Shown here one piece after another: positions 6,001 through 42,304 of a stretch of 64,000 nt of DNA. The position numbers were made by a program, and so were the translations under genes. Origin of the DNA: Myxococcota bacterium (lineage in GTDB: Bacteria; Myxococcota_A; Polyangia; Nannocystales; Nannocystaceae); contig JBCCHT010000026.1 in assembly GCA_039028615.1 (NCBI GenBank), forward strand, positions 32,001-96,000. The letters are read 5' to 3'. The notes under the pieces are model-generated. The model worked only from the letters and a program-made list of their open reading frames with translations. It ran no database searches and was not told the origin of the DNA. Each line of letters begins with the position of its first letter. Positions within the stretch are counted from its first letter, which is position 1.

Positions 6001-9000
6001 AGGCGCTGGGGGTCGAGCCGCTGAACCCCGAGGTCGGGATGGACGCGTTGGAGCGAATCGTCGCGCAACGAGTGCCGCAGGTCCTGGTCCTCGACGCTCC
6101 GCGTGAGCGTCTGGCGAGCTTTGGGATCGATGTGGTGGAGCCGGCGGCTGCTACACCGCGGTCGACCATGCCCGCGGCGGCCGCAGTCGCATCTTCGTCG
6201 TCCTCGGTGGCGGCACCCGCCGTGCTTCGGTACGTCCGGGAGATCTTCGCCGAGGTGCTCAAGTACTCGGTCGATGAACTCGATCCTCAGTCCACCTTCG
6301 AGGCTTTTGGTGTGGACTCGCTCGTCGGAGCGAAGGTTGTCGATCGCCTCGCGGAGGACGTCGGCGAGCTACCGGCCACGTTCCTGTTCGAGCACATGAC
6401 CATCGCATCGGTCGCCGATGCGTTGAGCCAGACCCATGGCGAACCACTGGCGCGAATGCTGGGCGCACCCGAACCGAAGCGCGCCGACGAGGTGGTGGCG
6501 AGGCCTTCGCGGCGACCCGCGGCCGTGCGTGCTCCGGTTTCCGTCGCCACGGACATCGCCGTGGTCGGCGTGAGCGGCCGCTACCCTCGCTCACCCGACA
6601 TCGATGCGTTGTGGCGCAACCTTCGAGACGGGGTCGACTGCATGTCGGAGATCCCCGCCGATCGCTGGAACTGGCGCGACCACTTCGACGGTGAGGAGGG
6701 CCGCGGCATCTATAGTCGCTGGGGCGGCTTCCTCGAGGACGTCGAGGACTTCGACCCGGGCTTCTTCGGAATCTTGCCTCGCGACGCGTCCGAGATCGAT
6801 CCGCAAGAGCGCTTGTTCCTCGAGAACTCGTGGCATCTGCTGGAGCAGGTCGGTCAGGGCAGCAGGGACACCCATGTCTCGCGAACCGGCGTGTTCGTCG
6901 GGGTCATGTACGGGGCGTATGGACAGCTCGCGGCGACGCACTGGCCTCAGGGGCGCTTCCCGGGGGCTCACTCCGCTCACTGGTCGATCGCCAATCGGGT
7001 GTCCTACACGTTCGACTTCCAGGGGCCGAGCTACGCCGTCGACACGGCGTGTTCTTCGTCGCTGACGGCGGTCCATCTCGCGTGCCAGTCGATCCTCGCC
7101 GGGGAGTGCGAGCAGGCCATCGCAGGCGGCGTGAACCTCATCCTGCATCCGGCCCACTACGCGGCGTTGTGCCATCGCCGGATGCTGGCTCGGGACCCGC
7201 ACTGCAAGGTCTTCGACGAGCGCGCCGACGGCTACGTGCCGGGCGAGGGCGTGGGCGCCGTGATGCTCAAGTCGCTGGCACAGGCCGAGGCCGATGGCGA
7301 CACAATCTGGGCGGTCATCAAGGGCAGTCACGTCAACGCGGGGGGCAAGACCAGCGGGTACACGGTGCCCAACCCCAACGCACAAGCGGCGCTGATCGAG
7401 ACGGCGCTGAAGCGCGCCAACGTGGAGCCTCGAACCGTCTCCTACATCGAGGCGCATGGTACGGGCACGGCACTCGGCGACCCGATCGAGGTGGTGGGGC
7501 TGTCGCGAGCGCTGCGAGATCGAGGCGCGATGGAGGCTTGTGCCATCGGATCGGTGAAGGCCAACCTGGGCCACCTCGAAGGCGCGGCCGGCATCGTGGG
7601 GTTGACCAAGGTGCTGCTGCAGCTGAAGCACCGCCAGCTGGCGCCCTGTGTGAATCTGGACAACCTCAACCCTCGCATCGACCTCGATGGAGCGCCGGTC
7701 GAGCCGCAGCGGGCGCTCGCCGACTGGCCACGAGCGAGTGCGTCGACGGACGATCGCGGGGAGCGAGTGAGCCCGCGGCGCGCGGGCGTCAGCTCCTTCG
7801 GAGCTGGCGGAGCCAACGTGCATGTGGTGCTCGAGGAGTACGTGGGCACGCAGGGGGCGGCCGACGCTCCTCGCTCGCCCGTCGACGGACCGTTGCCGTT
7901 CTTGCTTAGCGCACGGTCGGAGCGAGAACTGGACGCACTGGTGACCCGAACCGCCGCATGGGTCGAGGCCGCCGACGTGTCGTTGGAGTCGCTGGTCTAC
8001 ACCAGCCAGATCGGGCGTCGCGAGATGCCGCATCGGATCGCCGTACTCGCGTCCTCCGTGTCCGAGCTCGGACGTCGACTACGCGCCGTCGCCGAGGGCG
8101 ATGCGACCGTCGAAGGCGTGGTCCGAGGAACCTCGGACCATGGCGTCGACCGACGTTCACCGCTGCTGGCCGGCGAGGAAGGCAAGGCGTTCGCCCAGCT
8201 GCTGATGGATCGCGGTGATGTCTCTCGGGTGGCTCAGGCCTGGGTCGAGGGCCTACCCACGCCGTGGTCTCGCTGGTGGACGGACTCGCATCCTCCTCGC
8301 GCGCCGCTGCCCGGCTATCCTTTCGCGCGCAAGCGCTTCTGGGTCGATCCGGTGGGGATGGACTCCGTGGCTGCGCCGTCGCCCGAGCTTCCGCTTCGGC
8401 ACGAACTCGACATCGATCCGAGTGATCCCATCGTCCTCGAGCACCGCGTCGACGGCACGGCCATCGTGCCGGGTATGGCCTGGCTCGAGATCGTGCGGAG
8501 AAACCTACCGGGTGTGACCGCCGATTCTTCGATCGAGGTCGAGGGGCTCACGTGGCCTACGCCCATGCTCGGGTGGTCGGAAGGCGTGATGACCCTGCAG
8601 CCGCGCGACGATGGCTACGACTTCAGCGTGGAGTCGGTCGTGGGTGATCGCGTGTACGCACGAGGGTACGTGCGTGTGGTGAACCACTTCGATGGTCGCG
8701 TCGAACTGCAGCGGTTGCAGGCCCGCATGCCGGGACGCATCGACTCCAGCGACTTCTACACCCGCGCTCGCGAAGGCGGACTCGACTACGGTCCGACCTT
8801 CCAGGTCATTCGCGACTCGTGGGAGGGGGCCACGGAGGTCCTGATCCGCCTGGAAACGAGCGGTGACGCCCCGCTTCGTGGAGCGAGCCTTCGTCCCGAC
8901 CTTGCCGACGGTCTCGTGCAGGGAATCATCGCGCTCGAGCGCGAGGGTCGATCGTACCTGCCGACGGCGGTGGAACGCATCGTCGCTCGTGGCCCCTGGC

Positions 9001-12000
9001 CGTCTCGCGGCTGGGCCCACGTGGTCGAGGTCGAAGCCGCGGCCGGGACCGATGCCCGGTTGAACCGGCGCTTCGACGTCACTCTCGTCGCCGACGATGG
9101 TCAGGTGATGGCCCGGCTCCATGGGGTGACCGCCACCCTGGTCATGGCCAAGCGAGTCACGAAGTCGGACCCGAGCCCGATTGCCGCCCCGCCTGTGGCG
9201 ACCGGTTCGGTGGAAGAGCACCTGGAAGCCGCGTTGCGAGGCATGGCCCGCAGCTTCTTGCTGGTGGAAGAGTCCGATGTCGATCTCGACGCTTCCCTCG
9301 AGGAGCTCGGCTTCGACTCGCTGTCCCTGGTCGACCTGATCGACGAGATCAACGAGAGCTACGGACTCGATCTCGCTCCGCAGGTGCTGTTCGATTGCCC
9401 CACGCTGCGTGCCGTCGGTCGCTACCTGGCCACGAACCACGCCGACGCGGTCGCGTCTTCCATGCCGGCTTCGGTCGCGCTCGAGCCCACCGCTGCCCCG
9501 GTCGTGGCGGAGGTGGTGCTTCCGCAACAGCCGGTCCGGGCCGAGGTCTCGGATGTCGATGAAGCCAGCACCATCGCCATCGTGGGAGCGGCTGCCGTCC
9601 TGCCGGGCTCGGCCACGTTGGACGAGCTGTGGGATCACCTGGTTGCAGGTGACGATCTGGTCGGGCCCGTTCCGCCCGCGCGGATCGAGCTTTATGAGGG
9701 GCTGAACGGGCACAAGGTCTGGGGCGGCTTCGTCGACGACGTCGATCGCTTCGACGCGGCGTTCTTCCGGGTCTCGCCCCGCGAGGCGACGTTGATGGAC
9801 CCGCAGCAGCGCTTGTTCCTCGAGGTCGCGTACCGAGCGGTCGAATCCTCCGGCCATCGGGTGTCCTCGCTCGCCGGCACCCGCACGGGGTTGTTCGTGG
9901 GTGTCGGCACCTCCGACTACGGCGACCTCCTACGCCGCTACGACGTGCCCATTGCGGCCCACTGCGCCACGGGCATCGCTCACTCCATCTTGGCGAACCG
10001 GGTCTCGTTCCTGCTCGATCTGCAAGGCCCGAGCGAGGCGATCGACACCGCATGTTCGAGCTCGCTGGTCGCGATTCATCGTGCGGCGCGAGCCATCCTC
10101 GACGGAGAGTGCGACGTGGCTCTGGCGGGCGGCGTCAACCTGACGCTGAGCCCCGGCTTGTTCCAGGCCTTCACCGACTCGGGCATGCTCAGTCCGCAGG
10201 GGCGCTGCAAGACCTTCGACGCCAATGCCGATGGCTACGTCCGCGGAGAAGGGGCGGGCGCCATCGTCATCAAGACCATGGCGAAGGCGCGAGCGGACGG
10301 AGACGACGTGCTCGCGTTGATTCGCGGCAGTGCCGTCGGTCACGGCGGGCGCACGCAGTCGCTCACCGCTCCGAGCCCTGCGGCTCAGGAGCGGGTGCTC
10401 GTCGACGCCTACCTGGCCGCCGACGTCGACCCTTCAACCGTGTCGTACGTCGAGGCGCATGGCACGGGCACCAAGCTGGGTGATCCGGTGGAAGTCGAAG
10501 CACTGCTGCGAGCCCTTCGACGGCTCGAGCAGGAGCATGGCGGCACGCGCCCGGCGGAGGCCTCGATCGGAATCGGCTCCGTCAAGACGAATATCGGTCA
10601 CTTGGAAGCCGCGGCGGGAATCGCTGGCGTGCTCAAGGTCGTGCTCGCGATGCGTCACCGACAGTTGCCTCCGATGCTTCACTACCGTCGCCTCAACCCT
10701 CACCTGAAGCTGGAGGGATCGCCCCTGTTCGTGCTCGATCAGCTGACGCCATGGGCCGGGCGCACGGACGCCGATGGTCGCCTGGTGCATCGCGCGGGGG
10801 TCAGCTCCTTCGGCTTCGGCGGCACCAATGCCCACGTCGTGCTGGAGGGTCCGCCTGCATCCGAGCGGTCGTCGGGCACCATCCCGGCCGAGGCGCGGTT
10901 CTTGCCGCTGTCTGCACCGAAGGCCAACGGCCTGCGTGACCTGGCCGCCGCGGTGCTGCAGATGCTCGAGCGTGAACCGTCGCTGGAATTGTCGCGCTTG
11001 CTCTTCACCTATCAGTTCGGTCGCGACGCCTTCGATTCACGGGTCGTCATCGCGACACGGGACCGCGACGGCCTGGTCGCGGCGCTCGTGGCCGTAGCGG
11101 CCGGCAATCCCCTGCCAGGGATCGTGTTCCAGCCCGGCGACCAAGGGGCACCCCATGCCGCTGCCTCGTGGCTCGTTGGCGAAGGCTCGCTCGACGAGGG
11201 GTTATGGCCGAGCCCTCGTCCGACCCGTATCGCGGCTCCCGGGTGCCCGTGGAACCGGACTCGGTTCTGGTTCGAGCGGCCCGATCCAAAGACCCCCGAT
11301 GCGCGCCCCGTGCCTTCGAATGGCCAGGGCAAGCTTCGGCTGGTACCCGCGCGACGCGGGACCCCGGCGCGGGCGAGCGCCGTCTCGTCGAGCGCAGTGG
11401 CGGCCAAGGTTCCCGAGGGGCACAGCGCGACTGGACTGCGTGAATTCATCGAAGGCGAGGTTTCCACCTTGCTCGGTGTCCCTCGAGCCGAGCTTTCCCA
11501 TGAGACCCCGTTCGTCGACTTGGGGTTGGACTCGATCTTCGCGATGCAGCTGATGCGCCGCATCGAGAGCACCTACGGTGTCGAGCTGGCGACCTCGGAG
11601 ATCTACGATCACGACACCATCGCACGCCTAGCCACGTTCGCGGCCGCGCAGTGCGAGCAAGAGTCGAGCCCCGCCGAGCCGATCGCAGCCTCGGACCAAT
11701 CCGTGACGGACTCGTCCGAGATCGAGAGCGCCGCCAATGCGGACCCCACCGACCCGAACGCGGCCGACGGAGAGTTCGTGGAGGCGCAATCGCTTCTGCT
11801 TCGGAGGTTCGAGTCGGTCCTCGATCGGCCCGTCGCCACCGACGTGCCGTTCTCCGAGCAGCTCAGCTCCTTCGACATGCTCCGGGTCATCGCTGACCTC
11901 GAGCGTCGACTGGGGACGCTGCGCAAGAACCTGCTGTTCGAGTACCCGACCGTCCCCGCGCTCACTCTGCACCTCGTGCGAGACCACGGCGCAGACCGCT

Positions 12001-15000
12001 TCGGTGAGGAAGAGCAGGGTGAGAACCAGCCCAACGCGGGAGCCTCGCTGCTCAGCGAGGGCCTCGATGAGCCGGGCCCGTGGCTGCTGGCCAAGACGGT
12101 GGTGCGGGCAAACCCGCGGCTCCAGGCCGAGTTCACCGAACTCGAAGGTCGCCACGGCAAAGAGGGAGGCCTGCCCAACCGAGACATCTCCCCCTTGGTG
12201 TTCCTCGACTCGGCGCGTCGCGGGTACTTCAACTGTGCGCGTCGAGGCGAGGTCCTGTTCGCGTTCAGCAGCGTCGCGTCCGAGGAGGACTTCCCCGCGC
12301 TCGTCCGTGACTTCGTGACCTTCGCCCAGCGCAACGGCCTGGCGCCCAACTTCCTCTCCGTGCTCCCCATGGAGGAGGCGGGCGGCGTTCGGCTCAGCGC
12401 GACGCCCTTCGGTGTGGTCCAGCGGCTGCCGGAGCTCGCGTCCTTCGTGACGACCGGGAAGGCGAAGCGGCAGCTTCGCTACATGCTGCGGAACTTCACC
12501 CGCGATCGTACGTGCCGCACCGTCGAGTACCAGGTCGGGACCTCGACCGAGACGGATCGACAGATCGGCGAGATGATCGATCGCTGGTGCGAGACCAAGC
12601 GCATGATCAACCCCTACGTCCATCGGGTTCGAGAAGAACTGGTGGCGGGGCGCCTCGATGAGCGTCATCGGTTGTTCCTGACCTACGCCGATGACGCGCT
12701 GGCCAACGTGGTCATCTTGACCTCGATTCCCTCGGAGAACGGGTATCTCCTCGACCTCGAGTTCTACCCCGCGGAATTCCAAGGCGGCCTCGAGTTCGCC
12801 CTGGTGCGGCTATTCGAGCTGCTCCAGGAAGAGGGATGCACCATGTTCAGCTTTGGTGGGACGTTCGGGGTGAAGGCCACCGACTCGGCCAACGCCGATC
12901 CGCAAACCGAAGCGGACCTCGAGCAACTGCGGGAAGACGGGATCTTCGACGGGCGCGGCAACTACCAGTTCAAGAACAAGTTCCGCCCCGACAACGTGCC
13001 GATCTACCTGTGTCGACCGCTGGAGCCTGCGGCCACGCCCGTCGCGGAGATCATCCTGATGATTGCGTCACCCACCGTCGGCGCGACGAAGTCGACGGGG
13101 GAGTCGCCCGTGGCTCCCGTGTTGGGTGGCGAGGACGAGGCCGAGCGGCAGCGTCTGCTGGAGGACGTCGGTCACAACCCGCTGGTGCTCCCGGCGGCCG
13201 CGGTGCCCCTCGATCTGTCCACCGACTCGTGGGCGGAGATCGAGGAGGGTTTCGTGGCCGAGCGCATGAGCACCTTGCGGAGCCTGCCGCGGGGTGAGCA
13301 ACAGGCACCCCACCCCTTGCCCTTCCGGCACGTGTTCTCGGCCCCATCCGGTCGGGACGCCGAGGCGATGTTCTGCGGGGCGATGTCTCGTCGGCGCGGG
13401 GTCGTGCTCACCAACGGTCTGTTTCCCACGTGGTCGCTGAACCTCGTCGAGGCGGGCCTGGAACCCCACGTGCTGCGACCCAGCGAGACCAGTGGACGCT
13501 TCCGTGCGGACGTCGACCTCGAAGACTTGGTGGGTCAGCTCGCCACTCGACCCGGCGACATCGCCTTCGTTTGCCTGGAGCTGAGCAACAACGCGGGCGG
13601 CGGTCATCCGCTGTCCATCGCCAATCTCCGGGCCGTGCGTGAGCAGCTGGTGGTCCACGGTATTCCGCTAGTGCTCGATGCGACCCGCTTGCTCGAGAAC
13701 GCATACTTCGTGGCCGAGCACGAGACCGGTCGGGACAGCGATGACGTGTGGGCCGTGGCACGCGAGATGTTGGCGCTCGCGGACAGCATCACGCTGAGCC
13801 TGTCCAAGGATTTCGCCACCGACTACGGCGGGGTCGTGGCTACGCGGGATCCCAAGCTGGTGACGGCGCTGCACGAGCGTCGGGCCATGCGGGGTAACGA
13901 AGTCAACGCGAGCAACCGGCGACTGATCGAGGCAGCGCTGGCTCGTCCCGCCGAGGTCGCTCCGTTGGTACGAGCACGGATGGACGCGGTCGCGGGACTG
14001 TGGAGCGCGATGCGGGAGCGGGGCCTCCCCGTGCCGGAGCACACCGCGGGCCACTGCGTCGTGCTGGACGTCTCTGCGCTGCCGGCCTTCGCCTCGCTGC
14101 GCAATCCCCTGCCCGCGTTCGTGGCGGAGCTGTATCGCCAGGGAGGCGTTCGGGTGGCGCCGCACCTCGTCCCGGAGAGCTCGCCGATGTCGGGCCACGT
14201 ACGGTTCGCGGTGCCCGTGGGGATGCCGGCGGAGCGCCTCGACGCGGTGGCCGAGGTCGTGGCTCGGATCGCCGACCCCGACCATCGCCCGCTCGACCTC
14301 GAGCCGATGCAGACCGGCTCACCTGGGGCCTCGGTCGCCCGCTACCGCCCGGTCATCGAGGTGTCGCCGACGATCGTCAACGCACTCGAAGGCCGTCGTC
14401 AGACGCGGAACGAGAACGCCGAGGTGGTGGCCGAAATCTGCCCCGACGCGGAGCGTCGCATCGTGTCGCTGCCCGAGGGCCAGGTCGAGGTGTTCATGGT
14501 CGGTGATGGCCCGCCCGCGGTGCTGATGCACCCCTTCAACATCGGGGCAGGGATCTTCGCGGATCAGCTCGCGGGGCTCCGCGATGCCCATCGCGTCGTC
14601 GTGATCCACCACCCGGGAGTCGGAGCGACGACGGCGGCACCCGACCTGTCGCTGGACGGACTGGTCGCGCTGCTCCACGATGTGATCCGGGCGCTGGAGA
14701 TCGACGAGCCGCTGCATGTCGTGGGCGCGTCCGTCGGTGGCCTCGAAGCGCAGGCCTATGCCCTGCGGTACCCGGAACAGGTCGCCTCGCTCACGCTGCT
14801 GTGCAGCTCGTACCGGGTCGGCAATCGCAACGGCGTCATCAGCCCATTGGCAGACGTCGTCCGGGACGACTTCGCGGCGTTGGTGGCCGAGCGACCCGGG
14901 TTCCCGGAGCAACAGGACCGGCTCGCTCAGCGACTGTTCCGCTGCGAGAGCATGGCCCCTCAGATCGGGCTGCGTTATATCGACGAGTTCGAGATGGACC

Positions 15001-15272
15001 CGGGGCTGCTGGCACGCTTGCCTCAGCTGAAGTGCCCCACGCTCATCGTTCACGGGGGTCACGACACGGTGATCGACCGCACTACGGCCCGGGCCTTGTG
15101 GACGGCGATCGACGGCGCTCGTTGGGTGGAGCTGGAGCACGCGGGCCACTTCCCGAGCCTCACCGACCCTGCCGAGTGCAACGCACTGCTGCGGGAAGCG
15201 TTCGCGTCCGCGACTGAAGGCGACTCCGGCTCGGACTCCGATCCGGCGAAGGCCGAAGGAGGAGGACATTGA
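1..15272 (+). CDS. Trans-AT polyketide synthase, LnmJ-like, 5'-truncated by the window edge. Domains: [KS C-term]-ECH-ACP-KS-DH-KR-ACP-KS-DH-ACP-KS-ACP-ACP-DUF2156-PLP lyase(SH)-TE
   Basis: The frame is open from base 3 (IDFDAAG...ISAFGAGGSNVHLLLE, a KS C-terminus), so ATG 165 is not the start. ECH (GHASGGG, YGFTPGMGAT) ~880-1620. ACP GVDS ~1740-1975. Three full KS domains with DTACSSS/HGTGT/GH triads (~2283-3550, ~6552-7840, ~9570-10850). DH HxxxGxxxxP (~4075-4790, ~8395-9135). KR GGAGGIG/QANYAAAS. ACPs GVDSL, GFDSL, GLDSI. No AT (GHSxG) domain. Terminal DUF2156-like, tryptophanase-like (SLSKDF) and alpha/beta-hydrolase (GASVG) domains. Confidence 0.96.
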   Translation, partial: IDFDAAGIRVPGAAEPWIGGASGEPLRAGISAFGAGGSNVHLLLEAADEAPATSMPEQPVAFVLSARDQPGLRRYARDWLVWLSGQSESTSTSAAQLREHVARTLGVSADDLAGESIVDLGLDPATLQRLRADVDAEPRAPGNASVALTDIAHTLQVGRPAFEHRLAVVVRTLDELRRHLESFVAEQPASGTLAWWGEPTAPSNDALDPTSLEALAQRWQRGEPVSWPRVGEGGSSPRRINLPPYPFHGESYWYGRWKRGNEPGPLVAARPTPDQVSTMTIAEPTEKKVPDYHGDEVGLEVLESGIAVLMLQAEAHDNMFTSGLLQGLQWALAKVERDPRVRALVLSSRGPTFCMGGTPEALERLARKQGRFTDASIVYEGLLRCPVPVISAMRGHASGGGLMFGLYADIVVMSQDAVYGANFLKYGFTPGMGATYVLEKRVGSALASEMFLTGRGFGGRELERRGCNATFRTTDEVLPHALELARAVAAMPPSAVRVLKAELAGRWLRELPATIERELSMHERVLGDESLQQIERHLGREVGDVPPPAPRTPSPIPEAVVQSNAPTNVAVTKSVDVDALRRRVETTLVEILGKTLYLREDEIDHRRPFNELGVDSIGAVTIIRDLNDRYSMSLDSVLLYEHPTVERLASYVAEALADQQRSTDAVLRDAPAPIVEPQPLPAIEPEPEPVTTPPTSPRLLPLADLGVEAQSDWPVDPSPGRVALAPIEGRPPAGSHDPVQHDSSDRPEPEATKPATTGPRPIAVIGMSGRFPDAPDLDALWTNLAEGRSSVREIPRERWDVERYYDPDHRAPGKTLSKWGALLDDIDRFDARLFNISPMEAEVMDPQQRLFLEQAWASLEDAGYASSAGQTSCGVFVGCAAGDYADRLVDHDRLNTGEGFLGTAGSVLAARIGYVLDLTGPTVAIDTACSSSLVALHMACEAIRSRQCSMAIAGGVALMVTPHMHVRTSKLGILSRRGVCAPFDISADGTALGEGVGAVVLKDLEQAIADGDHIHAVVRGSGIGGDGRTNGLTAPNAQAQASLLRTTWERSGISPSDIDYIEAHGTGTELGDPIELKAIVEAMGEDASGDRPCGVGSFKSNVGHTTMAAGIGGLFRAVLAIKHGIVPPTAHFQSLNPKANLGGTRLCIDAVARPWNPGAVQERVATVSAFGFSGTNAHVVVSGAPPRRDGLSMAADQPVLVPVSGRTTEALRQRVADLAAALDYGHAAVDVAFSLAVGRSHLNHRVAFVARGEAELRRALSSWSRRADGESASAGSIAPPDERAIEVATARPEGESALRVLADAYEAGRDLDWSRVFAGRGGRRVPLPTYPFEDQRFWLSERTSVEPSTDAQTYATTHYRVAARDEWVADHRVAGRSLVPGAACIAWVASAIEASSFEIQGLRWLEPLVVDDVLEVALTTGTGQGGTGFRLETRGGTAHATGRVRSGTSSSPEPVRDLDHVFRRCSRMLDGADVYAAFVQSGLEYGPSYQGLEEVRLGTGEALGRIRLGRGSRIDGVGALDPRLLDVAWQAIAALTWDEARTSLVPFSVDSIVVFDVTAPVAYSHVRRIDASHFDVELLDATGQVSIRCEGMHLRAVAPPRRRSSYRPTWQPCPTPPEPTTTTTTNITVIHEDRDEPLVEAVRRAAGGSSVNAVSLWESSSALERALRDSEAILVVAGSSRPEGAGPAELGSAALRVTKALFSAGRRRAALALTFVVRNACALEGGERPQPRAATWIGLSRVITAEVSRWHVTCVDIGSEPADERLARALVDGPPHPLSAIRQGAWHRPAFSSIDLVPPQPGRGFERGGVYLIVGGAGGIGHAISRELATRYRATIAWVGRRPLDAAIEQQILEIEKLGGRALYQSADVSDADAFEAAVTRLEAQVGQFHGAIHCAAVFSDRSLIAMEEGDFRAVLAPKVAGAEVSSRVFSRRPLKFMVFFSSAASFVFAGGQANYAAASTFLDAHAASLDLPFPVSVVNWGYWGSVGAFADEDHRRRFEALGVEPLNPEVGMDALERIVAQRVPQVLVLDAPRERLASFGIDVVEPAAATPRSTMPAAAAVASSSSSVAAPAVLRYVREIFAEVLKYSVDELDPQSTFEAFGVDSLVGAKVVDRLAEDVGELPATFLFEHMTIASVADALSQTHGEPLARMLGAPEPKRADEVVARPSRRPAAVRAPVSVATDIAVVGVSGRYPRSPDIDALWRNLRDGVDCMSEIPADRWNWRDHFDGEEGRGIYSRWGGFLEDVEDFDPGFFGILPRDASEIDPQERLFLENSWHLLEQVGQGSRDTHVSRTGVFVGVMYGAYGQLAATHWPQGRFPGAHSAHWSIANRVSYTFDFQGPSYAVDTACSSSLTAVHLACQSILAGECEQAIAGGVNLILHPAHYAALCHRRMLARDPHCKVFDERADGYVPGEGVGAVMLKSLAQAEADGDTIWAVIKGSHVNAGGKTSGYTVPNPNAQAALIETALKRANVEPRTVSYIEAHGTGTALGDPIEVVGLSRALRDRGAMEACAIGSVKANLGHLEGAAGIVGLTKVLLQLKHRQLAPCVNLDNLNPRIDLDGAPVEPQRALADWPRASASTDDRGERVSPRRAGVSSFGAGGANVHVVLEEYVGTQGAADAPRSPVDGPLPFLLSARSERELDALVTRTAAWVEAADVSLESLVYTSQIGRREMPHRIAVLASSVSELGRRLRAVAEGDATVEGVVRGTSDHGVDRRSPLLAGEEGKAFAQLLMDRGDVSRVAQAWVEGLPTPWSRWWTDSHPPRAPLPGYPFARKRFWVDPVGMDSVAAPSPELPLRHELDIDPSDPIVLEHRVDGTAIVPGMAWLEIVRRNLPGVTADSSIEVEGLTWPTPMLGWSEGVMTLQPRDDGYDFSVESVVGDRVYARGYVRVVNHFDGRVELQRLQARMPGRIDSSDFYTRAREGGLDYGPTFQVIRDSWEGATEVLIRLETSGDAPLRGASLRPDLADGLVQGIIALEREGRSYLPTAVERIVARGPWPSRGWAHVVEVEAAAGTDARLNRRFDVTLVADDGQVMARLHGVTATLVMAKRVTKSDPSPIAAPPVATGSVEEHLEAALRGMARSFLLVEESDVDLDASLEELGFDSLSLVDLIDEINESYGLDLAPQVLFDCPTLRAVGRYLATNHADAVASSMPASVALEPTAAPVVAEVVLPQQPVRAEVSDVDEASTIAIVGAAAVLPGSATLDELWDHLVAGDDLVGPVPPARIELYEGLNGHKVWGGFVDDVDRFDAAFFRVSPREATLMDPQQRLFLEVAYRAVESSGHRVSSLAGTRTGLFVGVGTSDYGDLLRRYDVPIAAHCATGIAHSILANRVSFLLDLQGPSEAIDTACSSSLVAIHRAARAILDGECDVALAGGVNLTLSPGLFQAFTDSGMLSPQGRCKTFDANADGYVRGEGAGAIVIKTMAKARADGDDVLALIRGSAVGHGGRTQSLTAPSPAAQERVLVDAYLAADVDPSTVSYVEAHGTGTKLGDPVEVEALLRALRRLEQEHGGTRPAEASIGIGSVKTNIGHLEAAAGIAGVLKVVLAMRHRQLPPMLHYRRLNPHLKLEGSPLFVLDQLTPWAGRTDADGRLVHRAGVSSFGFGGTNAHVVLEGPPASERSSGTIPAEARFLPLSAPKANGLRDLAAAVLQMLEREPSLELSRLLFTYQFGRDAFDSRVVIATRDRDGLVAALVAVAAGNPLPGIVFQPGDQGAPHAAASWLVGEGSLDEGLWPSPRPTRIAAPGCPWNRTRFWFERPDPKTPDARPVPSNGQGKLRLVPARRGTPARASAVSSSAVAAKVPEGHSATGLREFIEGEVSTLLGVPRAELSHETPFVDLGLDSIFAMQLMRRIESTYGVELATSEIYDHDTIARLATFAAAQCEQESSPAEPIAASDQSVTDSSEIESAANADPTDPNAADGEFVEAQSLLLRRFESVLDRPVATDVPFSEQLSSFDMLRVIADLERRLGTLRKNLLFEYPTVPALTLHLVRDHGADRFGEEEQGENQPNAGASLLSEGLDEPGPWLLAKTVVRANPRLQAEFTELEGRHGKEGGLPNRDISPLVFLDSARRGYFNCARRGEVLFAFSSVASEEDFPALVRDFVTFAQRNGLAPNFLSVLPMEEAGGVRLSATPFGVVQRLPELASFVTTGKAKRQLRYMLRNFTRDRTCRTVEYQVGTSTETDRQIGEMIDRWCETKRMINPYVHRVREELVAGRLDERHRLFLTYADDALANVVILTSIPSENGYLLDLEFYPAEFQGGLEFALVRLFELLQEEGCTMFSFGGTFGVKATDSANADPQTEADLEQLREDGIFDGRGNYQFKNKFRPDNVPIYLCRPLEPAATPVAEIILMIASPTVGATKSTGESPVAPVLGGEDEAERQRLLEDVGHNPLVLPAAAVPLDLSTDSWAEIEEGFVAERMSTLRSLPRGEQQAPHPLPFRHVFSAPSGRDAEAMFCGAMSRRRGVVLTNGLFPTWSLNLVEAGLEPHVLRPSETSGRFRADVDLEDLVGQLATRPGDIAFVCLELSNNAGGGHPLSIANLRAVREQLVVHGIPLVLDATRLLENAYFVAEHETGRDSDDVWAVAREMLALADSITLSLSKDFATDYGGVVATRDPKLVTALHERRAMRGNEVNASNRRLIEAALARPAEVAPLVRARMDAVAGLWSAMRERGLPVPEHTAGHCVVLDVSALPAFASLRNPLPAFVAELYRQGGVRVAPHLVPESSPMSGHVRFAVPVGMPAERLDAVAEVVARIADPDHRPLDLEPMQTGSPGASVARYRPVIEVSPTIVNALEGRRQTRNENAEVVAEICPDAERRIVSLPEGQVEVFMVGDGPPAVLMHPFNIGAGIFADQLAGLRDAHRVVVIHHPGVGATTAAPDLSLDGLVALLHDVIRALEIDEPLHVVGASVGGLEAQAYALRYPEQVASLTLLCSSYRVGNRNGVISPLADVVRDDFAALVAERPGFPEQQDRLAQRLFRCESMAPQIGLRYIDEFEMDPGLLARLPQLKCPTLIVHGGHDTVIDRTTARALWTAIDGARWVELEHAGHFPSLTDPAECNALLREAFASATEGDSGSDSDPAKAEGGGH

Positions 15273-16222
15273 GCGCTAGGCTCGTCACGGGTCGGCTCGA
15301 TCGACTCGACGTCAGCACCGTCCATCGCCAGGTCGTGGTTCGGCCGGCGATGTGCGGCGCCCACTCGTTGTTCACGGGACAGGTCGGGGATTGGACCTGG
15401 GATGCGGTGGCGCAGGTCTGTGACGCCGACGTTCTCGCGGCACGGAACCCCGATGGCGACCCGACCTACCTGGCCTTCTACTACTACCACGTGCGGGGAG
15501 GGCCCCAGGCACACGTCGGAGGGCTGACCTTCGGAGACCACCTCGACGTGGTGTCCAAGGTCTACGGCTGCGGCGCGGAGTCGGTGCTCACCCTGCACAA
15601 GATCTCGGTGAATTCTCCGTCCGCGGGCCAGGACTTCACCTCGGCGGACTTCTTCGACTATCCCGATCCGTCGTGCATCTACGTCCAGAACTTCAACCGC
15701 TGGGTCTGTCGTAGCGCGCCGGGCAGCAACTCGGGCCTGAAGCGTTCTTCGCCCGAGGGCTTCATGCACGCTCACCTCCCGAGCCTCCCCGAGCGTCACT
15801 CTCCGCGTCGGGTCTACGGCCTTGCGAAGCGAGCCGGTCGCTTTCGGGGCCCCGGCCAGGCGCCGACCAAACCCGTGGCCCAGGTCGAGTTCCGATACGA
15901 GCTCGATGCATCGCGGGACGTCAATGGGGTGGGACTGATGTACTTCGCCTCGTACCACGCGATCATCGATCGCGGCATCTGGACGTTGTGGCGTCGACTG
16001 GGCCGGACCGACTCGTCGTTCGTGAGTCGCGTCGTGCTCGACCACAAGCTCTGTTATCTACGCAACGCCGAGCTGGGCTCTTCGTTGCAGCTGAGGGTGA
16101 GGCTGTCCTCACCGCCGGGCGATTCAGGCTCCGAGATCTACGACGTAGAGCTCTTCGAGGCCGAATCCCGAGAGGCGCTCGCCATCGCGAGCGTCGTGAT
16201 CGCGACTTCGGAGGTTTCATGA
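15269..16222 (+). CDS. LnmK-family bifunctional acyltransferase/decarboxylase (double hot-dog fold)
   Basis: Motifs PAMCG..SLF.GQVGDWTW, PTYLAFYY and RDVNGVGLMYFASY. TTG start overlaps the PKS stop and follows a GGAGGAGG RBS. Adjacent to ACP and HCS genes as in lnmKLM. Confidence 0.88.
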   Translation: MSARLVTGRLDRLDVSTVHRQVVVRPAMCGAHSLFTGQVGDWTWDAVAQVCDADVLAARNPDGDPTYLAFYYYHVRGGPQAHVGGLTFGDHLDVVSKVYGCGAESVLTLHKISVNSPSAGQDFTSADFFDYPDPSCIYVQNFNRWVCRSAPGSNSGLKRSSPEGFMHAHLPSLPERHSPRRVYGLAKRAGRFRGPGQAPTKPVAQVEFRYELDASRDVNGVGLMYFASYHAIIDRGIWTLWRRLGRTDSSFVSRVVLDHKLCYLRNAELGSSLQLRVRLSSPPGDSGSEIYDVELFEAESREALAIASVVIATSEVS

Positions 16223-16464
16223 CCCGACGAGATGTCATCGCCGCCCTGCATGAGGCGGTTGCCCTGGTCTTGCCCCACGTGGGCGCAGAAGAGATCCGAA
16301 TGGACCGTAACCTCGAGCAGCTCGGAGCGGACTCCGTAGACCGAATCGAGATCCTGGTGGGTATGACTCAGCGCCTGGGCGTTCAACGGCCGCTGTCCAG
16401 CTTCGCCACGGTGCCCGACATCGGGGCGCTCATCGACATGCTGGTCTCGGAGGCGGGCCGATGA
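16219..16464 (+). CDS. Beta-branching donor acyl carrier protein (LnmL-like)
   Basis: 81 aa from ATG 16219 (ATGA overlap with the upstream stop). LGADSVDR donor-ACP motif. Confidence 0.9.
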   Translation: MTRRDVIAALHEAVALVLPHVGAEEIRMDRNLEQLGADSVDRIEILVGMTQRLGVQRPLSSFATVPDIGALIDMLVSEAGR

Positions 16465-17705
16465 GCGCCTCGGAGCTCGGGATCGGCATCGAGGACCTCA
16501 ACGTCTACCTCGGCTGCCTCAAAGTACCCGTTCGCAGCTTCTTCCAGGCGCGCGGGCTCGACGAGCGTCGCTACGGCAACCTCCAGATGCAGGATCGTTC
16601 GATCGCACTGCCTCACGAGGACCCGGTGACCCACGCCGTGAATGCGGCCAAGCCCATCGTCGATGCGCTGGGCGACGCCGAGCGAGCCTCGATCGAGGTG
16701 TTGGTCACGGCTTCGGAGTCGGGCGTAGACATGAGCAAGTCCATCGCGTCTTATGTACATCGATACCTCGGGCTCTCGGGGCGGTGTCGCCTGCTCGAAG
16801 TGAAGCAAGCCTGCTTTGCCACGACGGGAGCGGTGCAGCTCGCTTCGGGCTACTTGGCATCGGGGATCTCGCCGGGAGCGAGGGCGTTGGTCATCGGTAC
16901 CGATGTGGCGATCGTCAACGAGCGAGCTCAGTACGCCGAGCCCACCATCGGCACGGGCGCAGCGGCGCTGCTGCTCGGCCCCCGGCCTCGGGTCTTTCAT
17001 CCCGATCACGGAGCGTTCGGCAATCACAGCTTCGAGACCATGGATTCGGCGCGCCCTCGGCCCGACTTCGAGATTGCGGATGTCGACGGCTCGCTATTCG
17101 CCTATCTCGACTGCCTGGACCGGAGCTTCGCCGCCTACGCGGATCGAGTCGAGGGCGTCGACTTCGAGCGGACCTTCGACTATCTCGCGTTTCACACCCC
17201 CTTCGTCGGACTGGTCAAGGCCGCGCACCGCAAGATGATGCGGAGCACGGGAGCCGACCCGGGGCAGGTGGCGGCCGATTACGAGCGCCGGGTCGCGCCT
17301 TCGCTCGTCTACCCGGGGCAGGTGGGCAACCTTTGTTCCGCGTCGGTGTACCTCGCACTCGCGAGCATCATCGACAGCGGGAACTTCGACGAGGGAACCC
17401 GCGTGGGCCTGTTCTCCTACGGCTCGGGGTGTTCCTCGGAGTTCTTCAGCGGTCGTATCGACATGGAGTCCAAGCGCACGCTGGCAAAGCACCGCATCGC
17501 CCAGCGCCTGGCCGATCGCATCGAGATTACTTTTGAGCAGTACGAGCGCCTACTCGAGGAGAACATGAAGTGCCTCGTACCCGTGGCGGACCGGGTCCTC
17601 GAGACCGCGCCCTACGACGCGTTGCTGGATCGGATCCCGGACCGGGATCCGATGTTGGTCCTGAAGAGGATTCGCCACTTCCACCGCGAGTACGACTGGG
17701 TCTGA
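16461..17705 (+). CDS. HMG-CoA synthase-like beta-branching enzyme (LnmM/PksG-like)
   Basis: EDPVT.AVNAA, SESGVD (catalytic Glu), EVKQAC (catalytic Cys), FHTPF (His), FSYGSGCSSEFFS. Confidence 0.95.
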   Translation: MSASELGIGIEDLNVYLGCLKVPVRSFFQARGLDERRYGNLQMQDRSIALPHEDPVTHAVNAAKPIVDALGDAERASIEVLVTASESGVDMSKSIASYVHRYLGLSGRCRLLEVKQACFATTGAVQLASGYLASGISPGARALVIGTDVAIVNERAQYAEPTIGTGAAALLLGPRPRVFHPDHGAFGNHSFETMDSARPRPDFEIADVDGSLFAYLDCLDRSFAAYADRVEGVDFERTFDYLAFHTPFVGLVKAAHRKMMRSTGADPGQVAADYERRVAPSLVYPGQVGNLCSASVYLALASIIDSGNFDEGTRVGLFSYGSGCSSEFFSGRIDMESKRTLAKHRIAQRLADRIEITFEQYERLLEENMKCLVPVADRVLETAPYDALLDRIPDRDPMLVLKRIRHFHREYDWV

Positions 17706-17726
17706 GCCCAGGGAAACGAGTTCACC

Positions 17727-17987
17727 ATGCAGCCCAACAACTCTCTCGATGGCCACATCCTGTCCGTTCTTCGCCAGTCCTTGCGCACCGTCCTCCCCGA
17801 CCTGAGCGAAGAGCAGCTCGTGCTCGACCGAGACCTCGCCGAGCTCGGGTTCAACAGCCTCGATCGTGCCGACGTCATCACGATGACCATGGAGGCGCTT
17901 GGGGTCGAAGTGCCGGTGGTGCAGTTCCTCGGGGTGAAGACCATCCGAGAGCTGACCCAGCTATTCGCTCGGCAGTCCCGTCGATGA
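17727..17987 (+). CDS. Second donor acyl carrier protein (AcpK-like)
   Basis: 86 aa with LGFNSLDRADVI, an AcpK-type (G.NS.DR) signature. Confidence 0.88.
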   Translation: MQPNNSLDGHILSVLRQSLRTVLPDLSEEQLVLDRDLAELGFNSLDRADVITMTMEALGVEVPVVQFLGVKTIRELTQLFARQSRR

Positions 17988-37842: not shown

Positions 37843-38859
37843 ATGGAACCTGGTCCGCAGCTCATGATGTTCGTGTCCGTGCTCAGCGCGGCCCTCACCA
37901 TTCATTTCATCGCCACGCCGCGGCCCGGCCGCTTCATGCTGGTGCGCGTCCCCGATGCCGATCGCCATCGAGCCCGAGCTCGTCGCGCCCTCGTGTTCAA
38001 CGGCATGGTCGCCGTCGCGGCGCTCCTCACCGTGTTCTTCGCGTCCGATCCGACCTGGCGCGCGCACGCGGTCGCGCTCGTGGCTGCGATCGTCGTGCCG
38101 TCGACGTGGATGGTGCTCGAGCTGCGGCGCGTACTTCGACAGTCGCCGCAGACGTCGGGCTCTTCGCGATACCGCGTGTCGCTCGAGTCCCCGCCGCCGA
38201 TCGCTTCCTATCTGTCGCCGACCTTGGTCGTGCTCGACCTCGCCGCCGTCGCGGTGCCTGCCGTCCTCTTGCAGGTCTACAACGGCGGTGAGTTCGGGCC
38301 CTGGTTCTTCTTCCTGCCCGTCATGCTGTTCATCTCCGCGGTGGTCGGCTTTTGCATCTGGCTGCAGGTGAGCCAGCGTAGGGCCTTGCCCGCGTCAGAC
38401 CCCGAGCGCTACGCACGGCTCGACGAACGGCGGCGGCGCGGCGTGGTGCGAATGCTCGAGTCGGCGCTCGTGTGCTGGAACCTCGCGGGGGGGCTGTTCT
38501 GGCTCAGCATCGCGATGGGCCATGCCGGGCCCGGCTACGCGGGGGCCGTGGTCGGTGTGCTCATCGGCGGCGCGGGCGTGCTCGTGGTCATCGTCAGGCA
38601 GCTCCCACGGTTGGCTCGGATCTCCGACGAACTCGCGACCCTGGCCGACGCAGATGCCCTGGGCACACGAGCGAACGGCTGGCGGTGGGGAGGCTTGGTC
38701 TACTACGCGCCGAATGACCCAGCCCTCGCCGTGCCGAAGCGGTCGGGGATCGGCCAGACGCTCAACCTGGCCCGGCCCTTGGCGTGGGCGTTCCTCGGTG
38801 GCCTGGTGCTCGCACCGACGATGATCACGGTGATGGCACTGACGCGAGCGCAGGGGTGA
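37843..38859 (+). CDS. DUF5808-domain integral membrane protein
   Basis: Several TM segments and C-terminal W..G.VYYAP.DP.L.VPKR.GIG.TLNLARP. Typical YtrA operon partner. Confidence 0.82.
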   Translation: MEPGPQLMMFVSVLSAALTIHFIATPRPGRFMLVRVPDADRHRARARRALVFNGMVAVAALLTVFFASDPTWRAHAVALVAAIVVPSTWMVLELRRVLRQSPQTSGSSRYRVSLESPPPIASYLSPTLVVLDLAAVAVPAVLLQVYNGGEFGPWFFFLPVMLFISAVVGFCIWLQVSQRRALPASDPERYARLDERRRRGVVRMLESALVCWNLAGGLFWLSIAMGHAGPGYAGAVVGVLIGGAGVLVVIVRQLPRLARISDELATLADADALGTRANGWRWGGLVYYAPNDPALAVPKRSGIGQTLNLARPLAWAFLGGLVLAPTMITVMALTRAQG

Positions 38860-39006: not shown

Positions 39007-39417
39007 ATGTCCACGCGCCGCCGGTTTCGTCGCAAGCCGGACACGGCGATTACCGCCGTTCCGCTCGAACTCGATACTCAGGGCTTTACGTACCAAAAAT
39101 GGGGCGGAGCCCAGCACTGCAAGCAAGGTGACTGGATCGTTCGTGCCGGTCACGAGGTTTACACGGTCGATCGAGAGACGTTTGCAAGGACGTACCGGGA
39201 GCTGAGCCCCGGCCGCTACGAGAAGGTGGGTTTCGTTTGGGCCGAACAGGCCAATACCGCGGGGTCCATCACCACAAAAGAGGGATTGACCGCGTACCAG
39301 GCCGGGGATTATCTCGTTTTCAACGATAAGGAAGGTGTCGATGGCTATGCGATGCCGGCCGAGAAGTTCCACCGCCTCTATCAGCCTGTTTTGACGGACA
39401 TGTCCGGGAGCAAGTGA
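39007..39417 (+). CDS. Small protein with two tandem PGDYG-like repeats
   Basis: Repeat 1: RRK...WGG...KQGDWIV...Y.VD..TF..TY. Repeat 2: EK...TKEG...AGDYLV...Y......F...Y. Stop overlaps the next gene's start (GTGATG). Confidence 0.72.
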   Translation: MSTRRRFRRKPDTAITAVPLELDTQGFTYQKWGGAQHCKQGDWIVRAGHEVYTVDRETFARTYRELSPGRYEKVGFVWAEQANTAGSITTKEGLTAYQAGDYLVFNDKEGVDGYAMPAEKFHRLYQPVLTDMSGSK

Positions 39418-41123
39418 TGTCCGCGAAGATTCCTACCTACTTCAGCCACAGTTATCGCCTGCGTGATCAGAACCTCAACAAGGAGCTGTGGTCTGTCTTC
39501 GCGAAGCATGGCTTTTTCTTCTCCGTTGACCCCCCGTCCAACATCACGGTGCACGCTCATCTCGAGCGGATGATGCGACAGAACAGCTGTTTCGTCGCGG
39601 TCGTGAATCGGCGGAACGAGGAGGCTGAAGTCTTTTGTTCACGGTTCGTGCTCTACGAAATGGGTCTTTCGTTGCAGGCTCGACTCCCGCGGCTGCTGCT
39701 GATCGATGGGGAGATTGGCTCGTCAGTATTCGACTCGCTGTCGAGTGAAGAGAAGGTGTTCTTCTCCCGAGGGAGCGATGGTCACGCGCAGTACGATCGG
39801 AGGGAACTCGAGAGGAAAGTCCTACGGCTCAAAGCGCGTGCCGAGCCCCTGACCTCACACACTGGTAAGCAAAGAGGCCCGATCGGGCTCTTGGTGCCTG
39901 AAACGAAGCGTAGTGCCGCCTACGGAGGTGCCTCCGTTCGCCGGAAGGTTGGCGAGGTCGCCCGACTGCACGGTTTCGTTTGCGAGGAGATTCCTGCTCC
40001 ATCTCGCGACAATGCCAGTTTTGCCATCGCGCTCGATCGATGTGAAGCCGTCGTTCTCGATGTTCGCGGAGACAAGACCCTACCTCCCTGGGTCTTTGCG
40101 TACATCCATGGGCGCTTAGTGCCCAGCATCAAGCTAGTTCGGTTGATGGAGGGGGAGCTGGCCTCCGATGTCGAACTTCCACCTGTGGTGAAGAGGCTCC
40201 GGATGGATCCCGATGAACCTACGGTTGAGAGCGTAACCTACTGGCGAGATTCATCAGACCTCATTCACCAGCTGGACCGAGCATTCGACAAGTTGGACGA
40301 ACATGCGACAGAACTGCGTCGGCCGAAGGAGGGACTGCGCTACTTCGATAGCATCGGGCGCCAGCCCGCGCGGGTATTCATCAGCAATGCCGGGGCCAAT
40401 AACGATACCGCTGCGAGACTATCTCGCCATCTTCGACTGAACAACATCGAGCGCTTTCAGTACAAAGACCGGGATGCAATTCCGACGGGAAGCAACTGGC
40501 AGGCCCAGATTCTCCACGAGTTGCGCGCGTGCCAGGTCTTCGTTGCGTTGATTGGACCCACCTACCGGGGCAGCGAGTGGTGCAGGAGAGAGTTCGAGAT
40601 TGCCCAGCAGCGGGCGAAGAGCGAAGAGCTTGTCATCCTGCCCTATCGACTCGGTGCGGCTGATGTCAGGTTCGCTGGAAAACTCCAAGCGCCCGACCTC
40701 CCCGCACGAGCCGCGGGTACACGCAAGATCATGAAGGACATCGATCGGGCTCTGAAGAGCGCGAGGCGGTCGAAGACACAGCGTCAACCGTACCTTCTTG
40801 GTGGGTCGAGGGAGCTTCTGGTCGATGCGTTGCGCCACATGCCGGCGGGTGCATGGAAGAAACTCCACGGTCAACTTCGAGTGGCTGGTGTCGATATCGC
40901 GCCTGCGCGATCGAAGAAGGTGCAGGCCCGGGGGGTAGCCGAGGAGGTCTTGTTCGCGGCGGAACGGGCGACTCTCACTGAAACTGCGGCCCGCCAGTCG
41001 CCGTCGGCCGTCGCCTACTTGATGGAGCAGCTCACCATTCTGGCGCCTAACCGGTACCGCAAGGTGCTCTCGAAGATTAGCAAGCGTCACCGACGGGGAG
41101 CCCGAAAGATCGAATCGATCTGA
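39417..41123 (+). CDS. Multi-TIR-domain protein (TIR-like, degenerate TIR-like, TIR_2, helical C-terminus)
   Basis: N-terminal YFSHSY...FVAVV...CSRFVLYE. C-terminal RVFISNA...W...VFVALIGPTY..SEWCRRE. Confidence 0.8.
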   Translation: MSAKIPTYFSHSYRLRDQNLNKELWSVFAKHGFFFSVDPPSNITVHAHLERMMRQNSCFVAVVNRRNEEAEVFCSRFVLYEMGLSLQARLPRLLLIDGEIGSSVFDSLSSEEKVFFSRGSDGHAQYDRRELERKVLRLKARAEPLTSHTGKQRGPIGLLVPETKRSAAYGGASVRRKVGEVARLHGFVCEEIPAPSRDNASFAIALDRCEAVVLDVRGDKTLPPWVFAYIHGRLVPSIKLVRLMEGELASDVELPPVVKRLRMDPDEPTVESVTYWRDSSDLIHQLDRAFDKLDEHATELRRPKEGLRYFDSIGRQPARVFISNAGANNDTAARLSRHLRLNNIERFQYKDRDAIPTGSNWQAQILHELRACQVFVALIGPTYRGSEWCRREFEIAQQRAKSEELVILPYRLGAADVRFAGKLQAPDLPARAAGTRKIMKDIDRALKSARRSKTQRQPYLLGGSRELLVDALRHMPAGAWKKLHGQLRVAGVDIAPARSKKVQARGVAEEVLFAAERATLTETAARQSPSAVAYLMEQLTILAPNRYRKVLSKISKRHRRGARKIESI

Positions 41124-41158
41124 CCTGGCTGAGGCTCGCGGGCGCTACAATCCACGCG

Positions 41159-42304
41159 GTGGTCTCTGACTACGATGGGTGGAAAGCCGAGGAAGCCTCG
41201 CCGGGCTATGTCCTCTCCCACTCGTACGTCGTCGATCAGATCTACCGAGACAGTACGGACCCGAAGACCAATCAGTTCTCGCGCTGGCTCGAGGTCAAGA
41301 ACTCGGGGGGGATTCGGCCTCGGACTGGGAACGACGGCACGCTTGTGGCCCTGGTTCTGGTGAGCACCCATGTTGCGGTTGCGACCTACAACCCTTGGGA
41401 AGATATCGTCGAGCCGCTTCAGGGCCGGGTTTGGTACTGGGGAGACGCGAAGGCGCACGCGTCCAAACGTCGAGATGACTGGCAGGGCAACCGCTACCTC
41501 GCTCAGATCTGGGAAGACATCAACGAAGGGCGTTGGTCGAAGGTTCCTCCCATCTTGCACTTTTCCAAGCCGGCGAAGGGGTTGGTTCGATTCACCGGGC
41601 TATGTGTGCTGACCGACTTACGTGATGCCTGGATGGAGGACAAGGGGATGCGGGTGCGTAACTACAACGCAACCCTCGACATCCTGCCCGTGGACAAGGT
41701 CCCCGTCGCATGGATTCGTGCCCGCAAACACGGCGTCGATATGAAGGTTCCTCCCGAGTGGGCTGCCTACGCGACGACGGGGAAGCACGAGCGGCTGCTG
41801 GCGTACGCCAAGCAGGTGCGAAGCCAACAAGAGCAGCTCCCCGAGGCTGCGTCCAGCCAACGCGCATTGCTCCACGACCTCAACCAGCTCGACCCGTTCA
41901 AGTTCGAGCGCCTGGTGGTTCGAGCGTTTCAGTCGATGGAGGTCAGCCACGACATTTCACAGACCCGCCGCTCGCGTGACGGCGGCTTCGACTTCCTCGG
42001 GTCGTTTCAGCTGCCTCCGCCTCTATCCTATCGGATTGCCATGAAAGGGGAGGTGAAACGCTACGATCCAGAGCGGCATGGCGTTGGGCCCAGAGATGTC
42101 GCTCGCCTCGTCGCTCGGTTGCAACGCGGAGAACATGGAGTCTTTGCGACCAACTCGTACTTCACTCGCCAGGCCCAGGCGGAAGTGCTCGAGGACCGAT
42201 ACCCCGTCGAGTTGATCCACGGGGGGCGATTGGCGGGGATGCTCGCGAAGGTCGGTGCGGTGAAGGGCGGGAAGCTCGACGATTCTTGGGTTCGCGGAGA
42301 GTGA
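41159..42304 (+). CDS. Modification-dependent restriction endonuclease, AspBHI/MspJI-like (SRA-like N-terminus + Mrr catalytic domain)
   Basis: NSGGIR, NPWED......YWGDAK, F.GL, then FE.LV, T..SRDGGFDF, GEVKRY, V.RLVARL, GVF.T.SYF..QAQ.E...D.YP. Confidence 0.87.
   Translation: MVSDYDGWKAEEASPGYVLSHSYVVDQIYRDSTDPKTNQFSRWLEVKNSGGIRPRTGNDGTLVALVLVSTHVAVATYNPWEDIVEPLQGRVWYWGDAKAHASKRRDDWQGNRYLAQIWEDINEGRWSKVPPILHFSKPAKGLVRFTGLCVLTDLRDAWMEDKGMRVRNYNATLDILPVDKVPVAWIRARKHGVDMKVPPEWAAYATTGKHERLLAYAKQVRSQQEQLPEAASSQRALLHDLNQLDPFKFERLVVRAFQSMEVSHDISQTRRSRDGGFDFLGSFQLPPPLSYRIAMKGEVKRYDPERHGVGPRDVARLVARLQRGEHGVFATNSYFTRQAQAEVLEDRYPVELIHGGRLAGMLAKVGAVKGGKLDDSWVRGE

Follow-up and report, generated by a model that had tools for sequence, protein, structure and literature searches.

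A PGDYG-like gene coupled to a TIR gene in a Myxococcota genome: a candidate TIR-signalling defence locus

The locus described here lies at positions 39007-42304 of a 64,000-nucleotide (nt) stretch of Myxococcota DNA (assembly GCA_039028615.1, contig JBCCHT010000026.1, positions 32,001 to 96,000), the whole of which is called the window below. It consists of three open reading frames in one orientation (+), with products of 136, 568 and 381 amino acids (aa): a tandem PGDYG-like protein (P0001), a TIR protein (P0002) and a modification-dependent restriction endonuclease (P0003). An earlier note, made from the letters of the DNA, had proposed an undescribed anti-phage system at this place, and its account of the layout was accurate. 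The TGA stop of the first gene (39415-39417) shares one base with the ATG of the second (39417-39419), giving the GTGATG junction (39414..39419, + strand) that the note had read as translational coupling; the gap between the second and third genes is 35 nt. The G+C counts that it had given for two lines, 31/60 (39421-39480) and 48/60 (38521-38580), were exactly confirmed. The G+C content of 39007-42304 is 0.601 vs 0.683 genome-wide, and a value this low occurs in just 0.55% of 7,294 genome segments of 3.3 kb each. The genes on either side are ordinary, namely a GntR gene and a DUF5808 membrane protein gene on the left and an M14 peptidase gene on the right. In what is probably the source run, so that the evidence is not independent, read depth was level across the locus and one contig spans 37500-41664. 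An empty insertion site was sought in five other genomes of the genus, where neither flanking gene was found, and searches of the locus for repeats, a promoter or a terminator gave nothing meaningful or above chance. The three genes form a small foreign-looking island.

The second gene (P0002, 39417..41123, +) encodes a member of a conserved full-length family, with 38 homologues that are mostly 42-51% identical along the whole length. The predicted model comprises three alpha/beta units and a helical tail (predicted local distance difference test score, pLDDT, 89; predicted template-modelling score, pTM, 0.86). Domain 3 (residues 314-450; 40356..40766, +) is a canonical TIR domain: it matches Pfam TIR_2 at E 2e-17, its fold overlays those of SPARTA, AbTir and TIR enzymes from plants (Z 16.6, root-mean-square deviation 2.0, 128 aligned residues), and it has an invariant glutamate, Glu392 (codon 40590-40592), at the catalytic position. 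A Foldseek search with P0002 as a whole gave no informative match. Domain 1 (residues 1-145; 39417..39851, +) appears to be a TIR-like alpha/beta unit and has an invariant Glu81 (codon 39657-39659). In an alignment of 56 rows, redundant ones included, Glu81 was kept in 52/52 and Glu392 in 53/53 of the rows with a residue there. Domain 2 (residues 152-297; 39870..40307, +), a further alpha/beta unit, has Ala or Pro and no Glu at the equivalent helix, and judging from its sequence it is likely inactive. Neither domain 1 nor domain 2 gave a Pfam match even at E 2. Domain 1 aligned weakly with domain 3, Glu on Glu (E 0.009, probability 4.6%), and domains 1 and 2 gave no clear alignment with the hydrolase domain of the TPR-S proteins (E 0.06 and 0.02, probabilities <3%). 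The description of P0002 as a multi-TIR protein stands only for residues 314-450 and lacks a Pfam match for the two units before them.

The C-terminal helical domain (40788..41120, +) shows, at residues 458-541, a faint EAD7-type structural likeness (template-modelling scores 0.49/0.67). In multicellular bacteria, EADs are described as recruiting effectors, TIR domains among them (PMC7159879). P0002 could accordingly belong to a ternary conflict or cell-signalling system as an effector that has become detached and is brought in by this domain, and be no stand-alone anti-phage protein. We regard this as very unlikely: the likeness is below the bar for naming, Pfam EAD searches of 34 family members returned nothing save VMAP-M0 (E 0.025, in two), and neither the window nor the related loci contain an NTPase core. 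One distant homologue (P0160) has a purine-nucleoside-phosphorylase-type (PNP) domain in place of the helical tail. The TIR family of P0002 is rare. It was not found in viral contigs or plasmids, nor, at E 1e-15 with three candidates scored per genome, in another 400 genomes of the phylum, and no full-length homologue was found in 60 relatives.

The first gene (P0001, 39007..39417, +) encodes a candidate regulator or sensor. Its designation as a tandem-PGDYG protein held in part: the sequence repeats internally (hhalign 93%, E 2.9e-7), the nearest Atlas clusters are PGDYG (0.96) and one Atlas structure match reaches the bar, but the score against Pfam PGDYG (PF14083) is 17.7 bits, below the cut-off of 27; among its close homologues, some do exceed that cut-off or are assigned to the family. 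The family of P0001 is well conserved, with 336 homologues of similar length that are ~60% identical, and 887 representatives at E 0.001. The predicted structure of P0001 shows two intertwined SH3-like beta barrels (pLDDT 89). Its best matches among solved folds are SH3/Tudor-like, with a best Z of 4.5, which is not significant; a Foldseek search of the PDB gave nothing at E 0.001, and no sequence relative with a solved structure was found, none of which makes the fold a new one.

To see what accompanies the TIR gene elsewhere, we can turn to 17 loci with a P0002-type TIR gene, obtained from genome and metagenome scans, P0002's own sub-clade not being among them. Upstream sequence was at least 900 nt long in nine, 100-430 nt in four and absent in four. 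The earlier note had staked its proposal on a PGDYG-TIR pair conserved across genomes, and such a pair did not appear: a homologue of the PGDYG gene was present in 0/17 loci, and the place directly 3' of the TIR gene was taken in 14/17 by a stand-alone RyR-domain gene, mostly overlapping the TIR stop. Within the sub-clade of P0002, to which P0123, P0127, P0154, P0156 and P0436 belong, a local PGDYG-TIR pairing may still exist. The RyR identity was confirmed by Pfam in all nine partners tested, and the partner is present in 8/11 clusters at ~90% identity, across two clades. In the source genome, which is 96.7% complete, there is no RyR (PF02026) match.

The RyR partners resemble a phage protein, RyDEP, which according to the accessible part of its preprint (PMC13232231) cleaves 2' and 3' cyclic ADP-ribose (cADPR) using His75, Trp78, His100 and Asp117. 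All 14 partners keep His35, Trp38, His60 and Asp77, with a spacing equal to that of the RyDEP residues. The same part of the preprint reports that the ligand residues are conserved family-wide and that six of eight RyDEP homologues tested bind the signals without cleavage (PMC13232231). Because these residues are conserved across the whole RyDEP family, their presence points to ligand binding and not necessarily to catalysis. Unlike RyDEP, which is described there as a phage anti-defence protein, the RyR gene is here a host gene coupled to a TIR gene, and the window carries PGDYG and no RyR. RyR has common phage proteins of unknown function among its relatives.

A Tle1-like phospholipase gene is also present in five of the TIR loci; in two it precedes the TIR gene and in three it follows the RyR gene. 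These TIR, RyR and Tle1-like (DUF2235) genes (L004:6739-10008, L010, L007, L008, L018:7995-11470) form insertions flanked by gshB and a comM-type gene and come in two arrangements, and the set is a candidate for a complete system of signal maker, eraser and effector.

The third gene (P0003, 41159..42304, +) is better understood. Its product has both domains of its family, an N-terminal methylcytosine-binding RE_AspBHI_N domain (PF18062, E 8e-34) and an Mrr_cat nuclease domain (PF04471, E 2e-16), and it aligns full-length to AspBHI (4oc8, E 2e-32) with the D..ExK catalytic motif present. As it shares both domains and the motif with AspBHI, MspJI and LpnPI, with no notable difference, P0003 is an ordinary AspBHI-type enzyme, which presumably cleaves DNA containing 5-methylcytosine or 5-hydroxymethylcytosine (5mC/5hmC). 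The earlier note had recognised the methyl-dependent AspBHI/MspJI type correctly and had called the enzyme type IV; PADLOC places it as mREase_II, type II methyl-directed (E 9e-52). This was the sole strong PADLOC match at the locus, much as had been anticipated, except that gene 2 gave weak TIR-domain matches. A broken AspBHI-type gene was seen in another genome of the genus, in a low-GC island that also encodes a DUF4062 protein and a kinase (L052:4601-11718).

The nuclease might be thought to belong to a fixed PGDYG-TIR system, which would stand guard over it and bring about cell death if restriction is blocked, or would supply the nuclease with a signal. The common orientation, the short gap and the shared low G+C content speak for such cooperation, and other loci do have variable effector-like genes nearby (the Tle1-like phospholipase, an S8 peptidase, a SLOG-like membrane protein). 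However, a homologue of gene 3 is present in 0/17 TIR loci. P0003 was matched in 5/72 other genomes of the family, and the three closest relatives among these (53-70% identity) have neither gene 1 nor gene 2 within ~6-8 kb. P0003 also has its own methyl-DNA reading domain, with no extra sensor. We therefore find a nuclease-coupled system most improbable, and the suggestion of a joint action with the nuclease is not supported; P0003 is probably a separate passenger acting alone.

As to PGDYG itself, longer homologues numbered 148, many related to one another, and of the 120 listed, 83 are fused to patatin and 33 to SLATT/DUF4231, with one each for MBL, thioesterase, muramidase and an unannotated protein. 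Among the same 120, the fusion is N-terminal in 36 and C-terminal in 83. In PADLOC, the patatin of these fusions corresponds to a phospholipase effector (E 5e-46) and the MBL to LmuA/Avs1a (LmuA E 9e-71), and additional fusions involve a PDC-S60-like domain and a Zeta toxin. Some very long proteins (P0281, P0336, P0314, P0367, P0386, P0388) have many PGDYG repeats, and two of them end in a Zeta-toxin-like domain. In the Atlas, structure neighbours sit in clusters with RyR, TPR-S and DHH domains, and PGDYG-like and RyR-like domains co-occur in one cluster. A TrkA_N protein with a weak RyR match adjoins a distant PGDYG gene in one contig (L027:2494-5090). Genomes with a match to gene 1 amounted to 3/400, 1/72, 4/401, 2/331 and 3/225 in overlapping sets, the first three of which include weak matches; one plasmid also had a match. 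P0001 was not found in annotated phages and had two weak matches in viral contigs, and its distant relatives are common unannotated phage families, with 117/119 members matching three PHROGs.

Six stand-alone close homologues of P0001 could be obtained with their context (L025, L026, L059, L060, L061, L062). In three of these loci (L025, L059, L060), TIR_2 genes and TPR-S effectors lie within 8 kb. In L025, a TIR-WD40 gene is followed by a PGDYG gene with a frameshift and next by one for a TPR-S protein. L060 has, in order, genes for CHAT-TPR-S, TIR_2, PGDYG, TPR-S, a membrane protein of the L020 type and a DUF4062 protein, and the TPR-S gene starts 2 nt downstream of the PGDYG gene. The membrane protein that follows is homologous (31%, E 2e-33) to the one encoded behind the TIR gene in L020, a member of the P0002-type set. 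In the 4.2-Mb genome G1072, all five TIR_2 matches are at most 10 kb from its PGDYG gene, which lies in an island (L059:935-8597, G1072:C5) with three TIR_2 genes and a TPR-S-patatin fusion. In L061, the PGDYG gene overlaps a patatin gene. The TIR family of gene 2 itself is present in 0/6 of these loci. The unannotated membrane protein family with a faint SLOG match (E 0.12-0.16; L020:596-1717, L060:10807-11886, L063:5983-7101) is a candidate effector, and its L063 member is encoded by a plasmid of Streptomyces, next to integrase genes and one for a TPR protein.

The fusions invite the idea that PGDYG is a sensor or adaptor, its barrels binding a phage protein or nucleic acid and switching on the attached effector, here the TIR NADase. 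PGDYG does indeed occur joined to unrelated domains of killing type, on its N-terminal or its C-terminal side, two solitary fusions have no TIR neighbour (L037, L038), the top fold matches are SH3/Tudor-like with conserved aromatic residues, and genes 1 and 2 are translationally coupled. Nevertheless, the TIR family is mostly found with RyR, a binder of nucleotide signals, and the fold matches are below significance. Since RyR is the usual partner and PGDYG is in none of the 17 loci, the TIR protein does not need PGDYG. We consider a direct phage sensor somewhat unlikely and favour a nucleotide-binding regulator, because the partner slot holds RyR in most sampled lineages and PGDYG is sensor-like elsewhere.

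The same absences could mean that a single insertion hot spot has gathered three genes with nothing to do with one another. The TIR gene would then have lost its RyR partner, and the PGDYG gene would be there simply as a frequent inhabitant of defence islands. In keeping with this, PGDYG and the P0002 family do not meet in either set of loci, the fit to genomic codon usage is unequal between genes 1, 2 and 3 (0.09, -0.03 and 0.09 per codon), and relatives of the nuclease are solo insertions. Unrelated cargo would not, however, readily account for the one-base stop/start overlap, for a neighbour network (TPR-S, the SLOG-like membrane protein, RyR) shared by both families, or for the integrity of genes 1 and 2, which keep all conserved residues. 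We think this explanation unlikely.

The reading that we prefer, at a little under an even chance, is that the locus combines a TIR enzyme making an ADP-ribose (ADPR)-type signal with an interchangeable small nucleotide-binding regulator, PGDYG here and RyR elsewhere, the nuclease standing apart. Upon phage infection, P0002 would cleave NAD and make an ADP-ribose-type signal, with domain 3 (Glu392) hydrolysing or cyclising NAD+. P0001 would bind the signal and hold it below threshold, in the role predicted for the RyR protein. Because there is no separate effector gene at the locus, the output is sought within the P0002 chain or in NAD+ loss: it would be either the N-terminal module, in which domain 1 (Glu81) would be a second catalytic unit and domain 2 would bind a ligand without being active, or simply the loss of NAD+. 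The locus would protect against phage, and P0003 would act independently as a nuclease for methylated DNA. A broader version, possible and in our view doubtful, is that PGDYG is an undescribed and widespread receptor of TIR ADP-ribose signals (a sensor when joined to patatin, SLATT or hydrolase effectors, a buffer that sets the threshold when solo next to TIR enzymes, a sponge in phages), and that the P0002 family is an undescribed defence system with its own eraser, mostly RyR and in this case PGDYG.

Several observations weigh against the reading with an interchangeable regulator. The adjacency of PGDYG and TIR was seen once. Of the 14 RyR loci, 13 belong to one clade, with L019 in the second, so that the count of 14/17 overstates the association; the clades come from a quick tree from which L020 was omitted as a fragment. 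L005, the other member of the second clade, has no partner gene, the TIR gene of L013 is followed by a 230-aa gene of unknown family, and that of L020 by the membrane protein with the faint SLOG match, neither being RyR. TIR identity is established for domain 3 alone, by profile and fold, and is unproven for domains 1 and 2. Two of the six stand-alone PGDYG loci (L026, L062) show no adjacent TIR or effector family, and the two solitary PGDYG fusions, of 285-286 aa, lie amid housekeeping genes (L037:7180-8037; L038:3053-3913), where a signal-dependent effector should not stand alone. SH3/Tudor-like folds are more typical of peptide or nucleic-acid readers. Finally, the P0001 family is slightly acidic (sampled net charges -13 to 0), and the sponge pockets are characterized as positively charged (10.1101/2025.07.12.664507, PMC13728456).

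Among known systems, the closest parallel is Thoeris. Like it, the locus is a small operon with a TIR protein bearing a catalytic-position Glu, and SLATT, hydrolase-TPR-S (type VII/VIII-like) and membrane proteins with SLOG likeness are found among the neighbours of the P0002 and P0001 families. According to the main text of a preprint on Thoeris types I-XI, hydrolase-TPR and SLATT are the cADPR-activated effectors of types VIII and VII, respectively; the same text makes no mention of RyR, PGDYG or patatin (10.64898/2025.12.03.692087). Judging from their domains, the TPR-S proteins of the PGDYG islands may belong to type VIII. Unlike the small ThsB, however, P0002 is a 568-aa multi-domain TIR protein, and only PGDYG and the restriction enzyme adjoin it, with no match to ThsA, Macro, SLATT, caspase or TPR-S. 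The type III model ThcB4 (NCBIfam NF058526) matches residues 315-400 at 38.4 bits vs a cut-off of 220, and the window has no SLOG effector gene, whereas the relative L020 has a faintly SLOG-like one. With regard to CBASS, Pycsar, SPARTA and Avs, Pfam scans of the called genes at 15269-63997 found no cyclase, Argonaute or STAND NTPase, and they recognised no further defence genes; the absence of these and of ThsA agrees with what the earlier note had said. The P0001 family is, like the phage sponges Tad1, Tad2, Acb2, Acb4, Sequestin and Lockin, small, modular and widespread in phages, but among the matches listed for P0001 there was none, in sequence or fold, to a solved sponge.

Because it has no separate Thoeris effector and no named model above cut-off, the locus fits no named system, as had been proposed, the NCBIfam matches being far below cut-off. 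In the literature searched (for the Thoeris preprint, its text without the figure list and supplements) there was no description of PGDYG, PF14083, RyR-TIR pairs or such a locus. Burroughs et al. reportedly treated SLOG, SLATT and TPR-S systems in 2015 in Nucleic Acids Research (NAR), which may bear on novelty. Most plausibly, the locus works like a TIR-signalling defence.

Elsewhere on the contig, the window contains the end of a polyketide cluster (165-17987), with a 5,035-aa open reading frame and LnmK-like, HMG-CoA-synthase-like and acyl carrier protein genes. About 65 kb from the locus and outside the window, two more TIR_2 genes face each other (G000:C26:138704-142692).

The question addressed by these loci is how a host keeps or switches off TIR signals; the RyDEP preprint, in its accessible part, names only phage proteins as known to degrade them (PMC13232231). 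The PGDYG domain and the TIR-RyR pair of hosts are what most deserves testing at the bench. With a host TIR enzyme tightly coupled to a RyR protein whose ligand residues are intact, and a lineage that has exchanged this protein for PGDYG, two small proteins would suffice for a direct test. If the proposed reading is true, it would assign a function to PF14083, a domain fused to several defence-type effectors and with distant relatives in unannotated phage families, and it would place the RyR repeat, known from calcium channels of animals, in a bacterial context. If the genes are only cargo, the locus adds no more than a further TIR gene next to a restriction enzyme of an ordinary kind.

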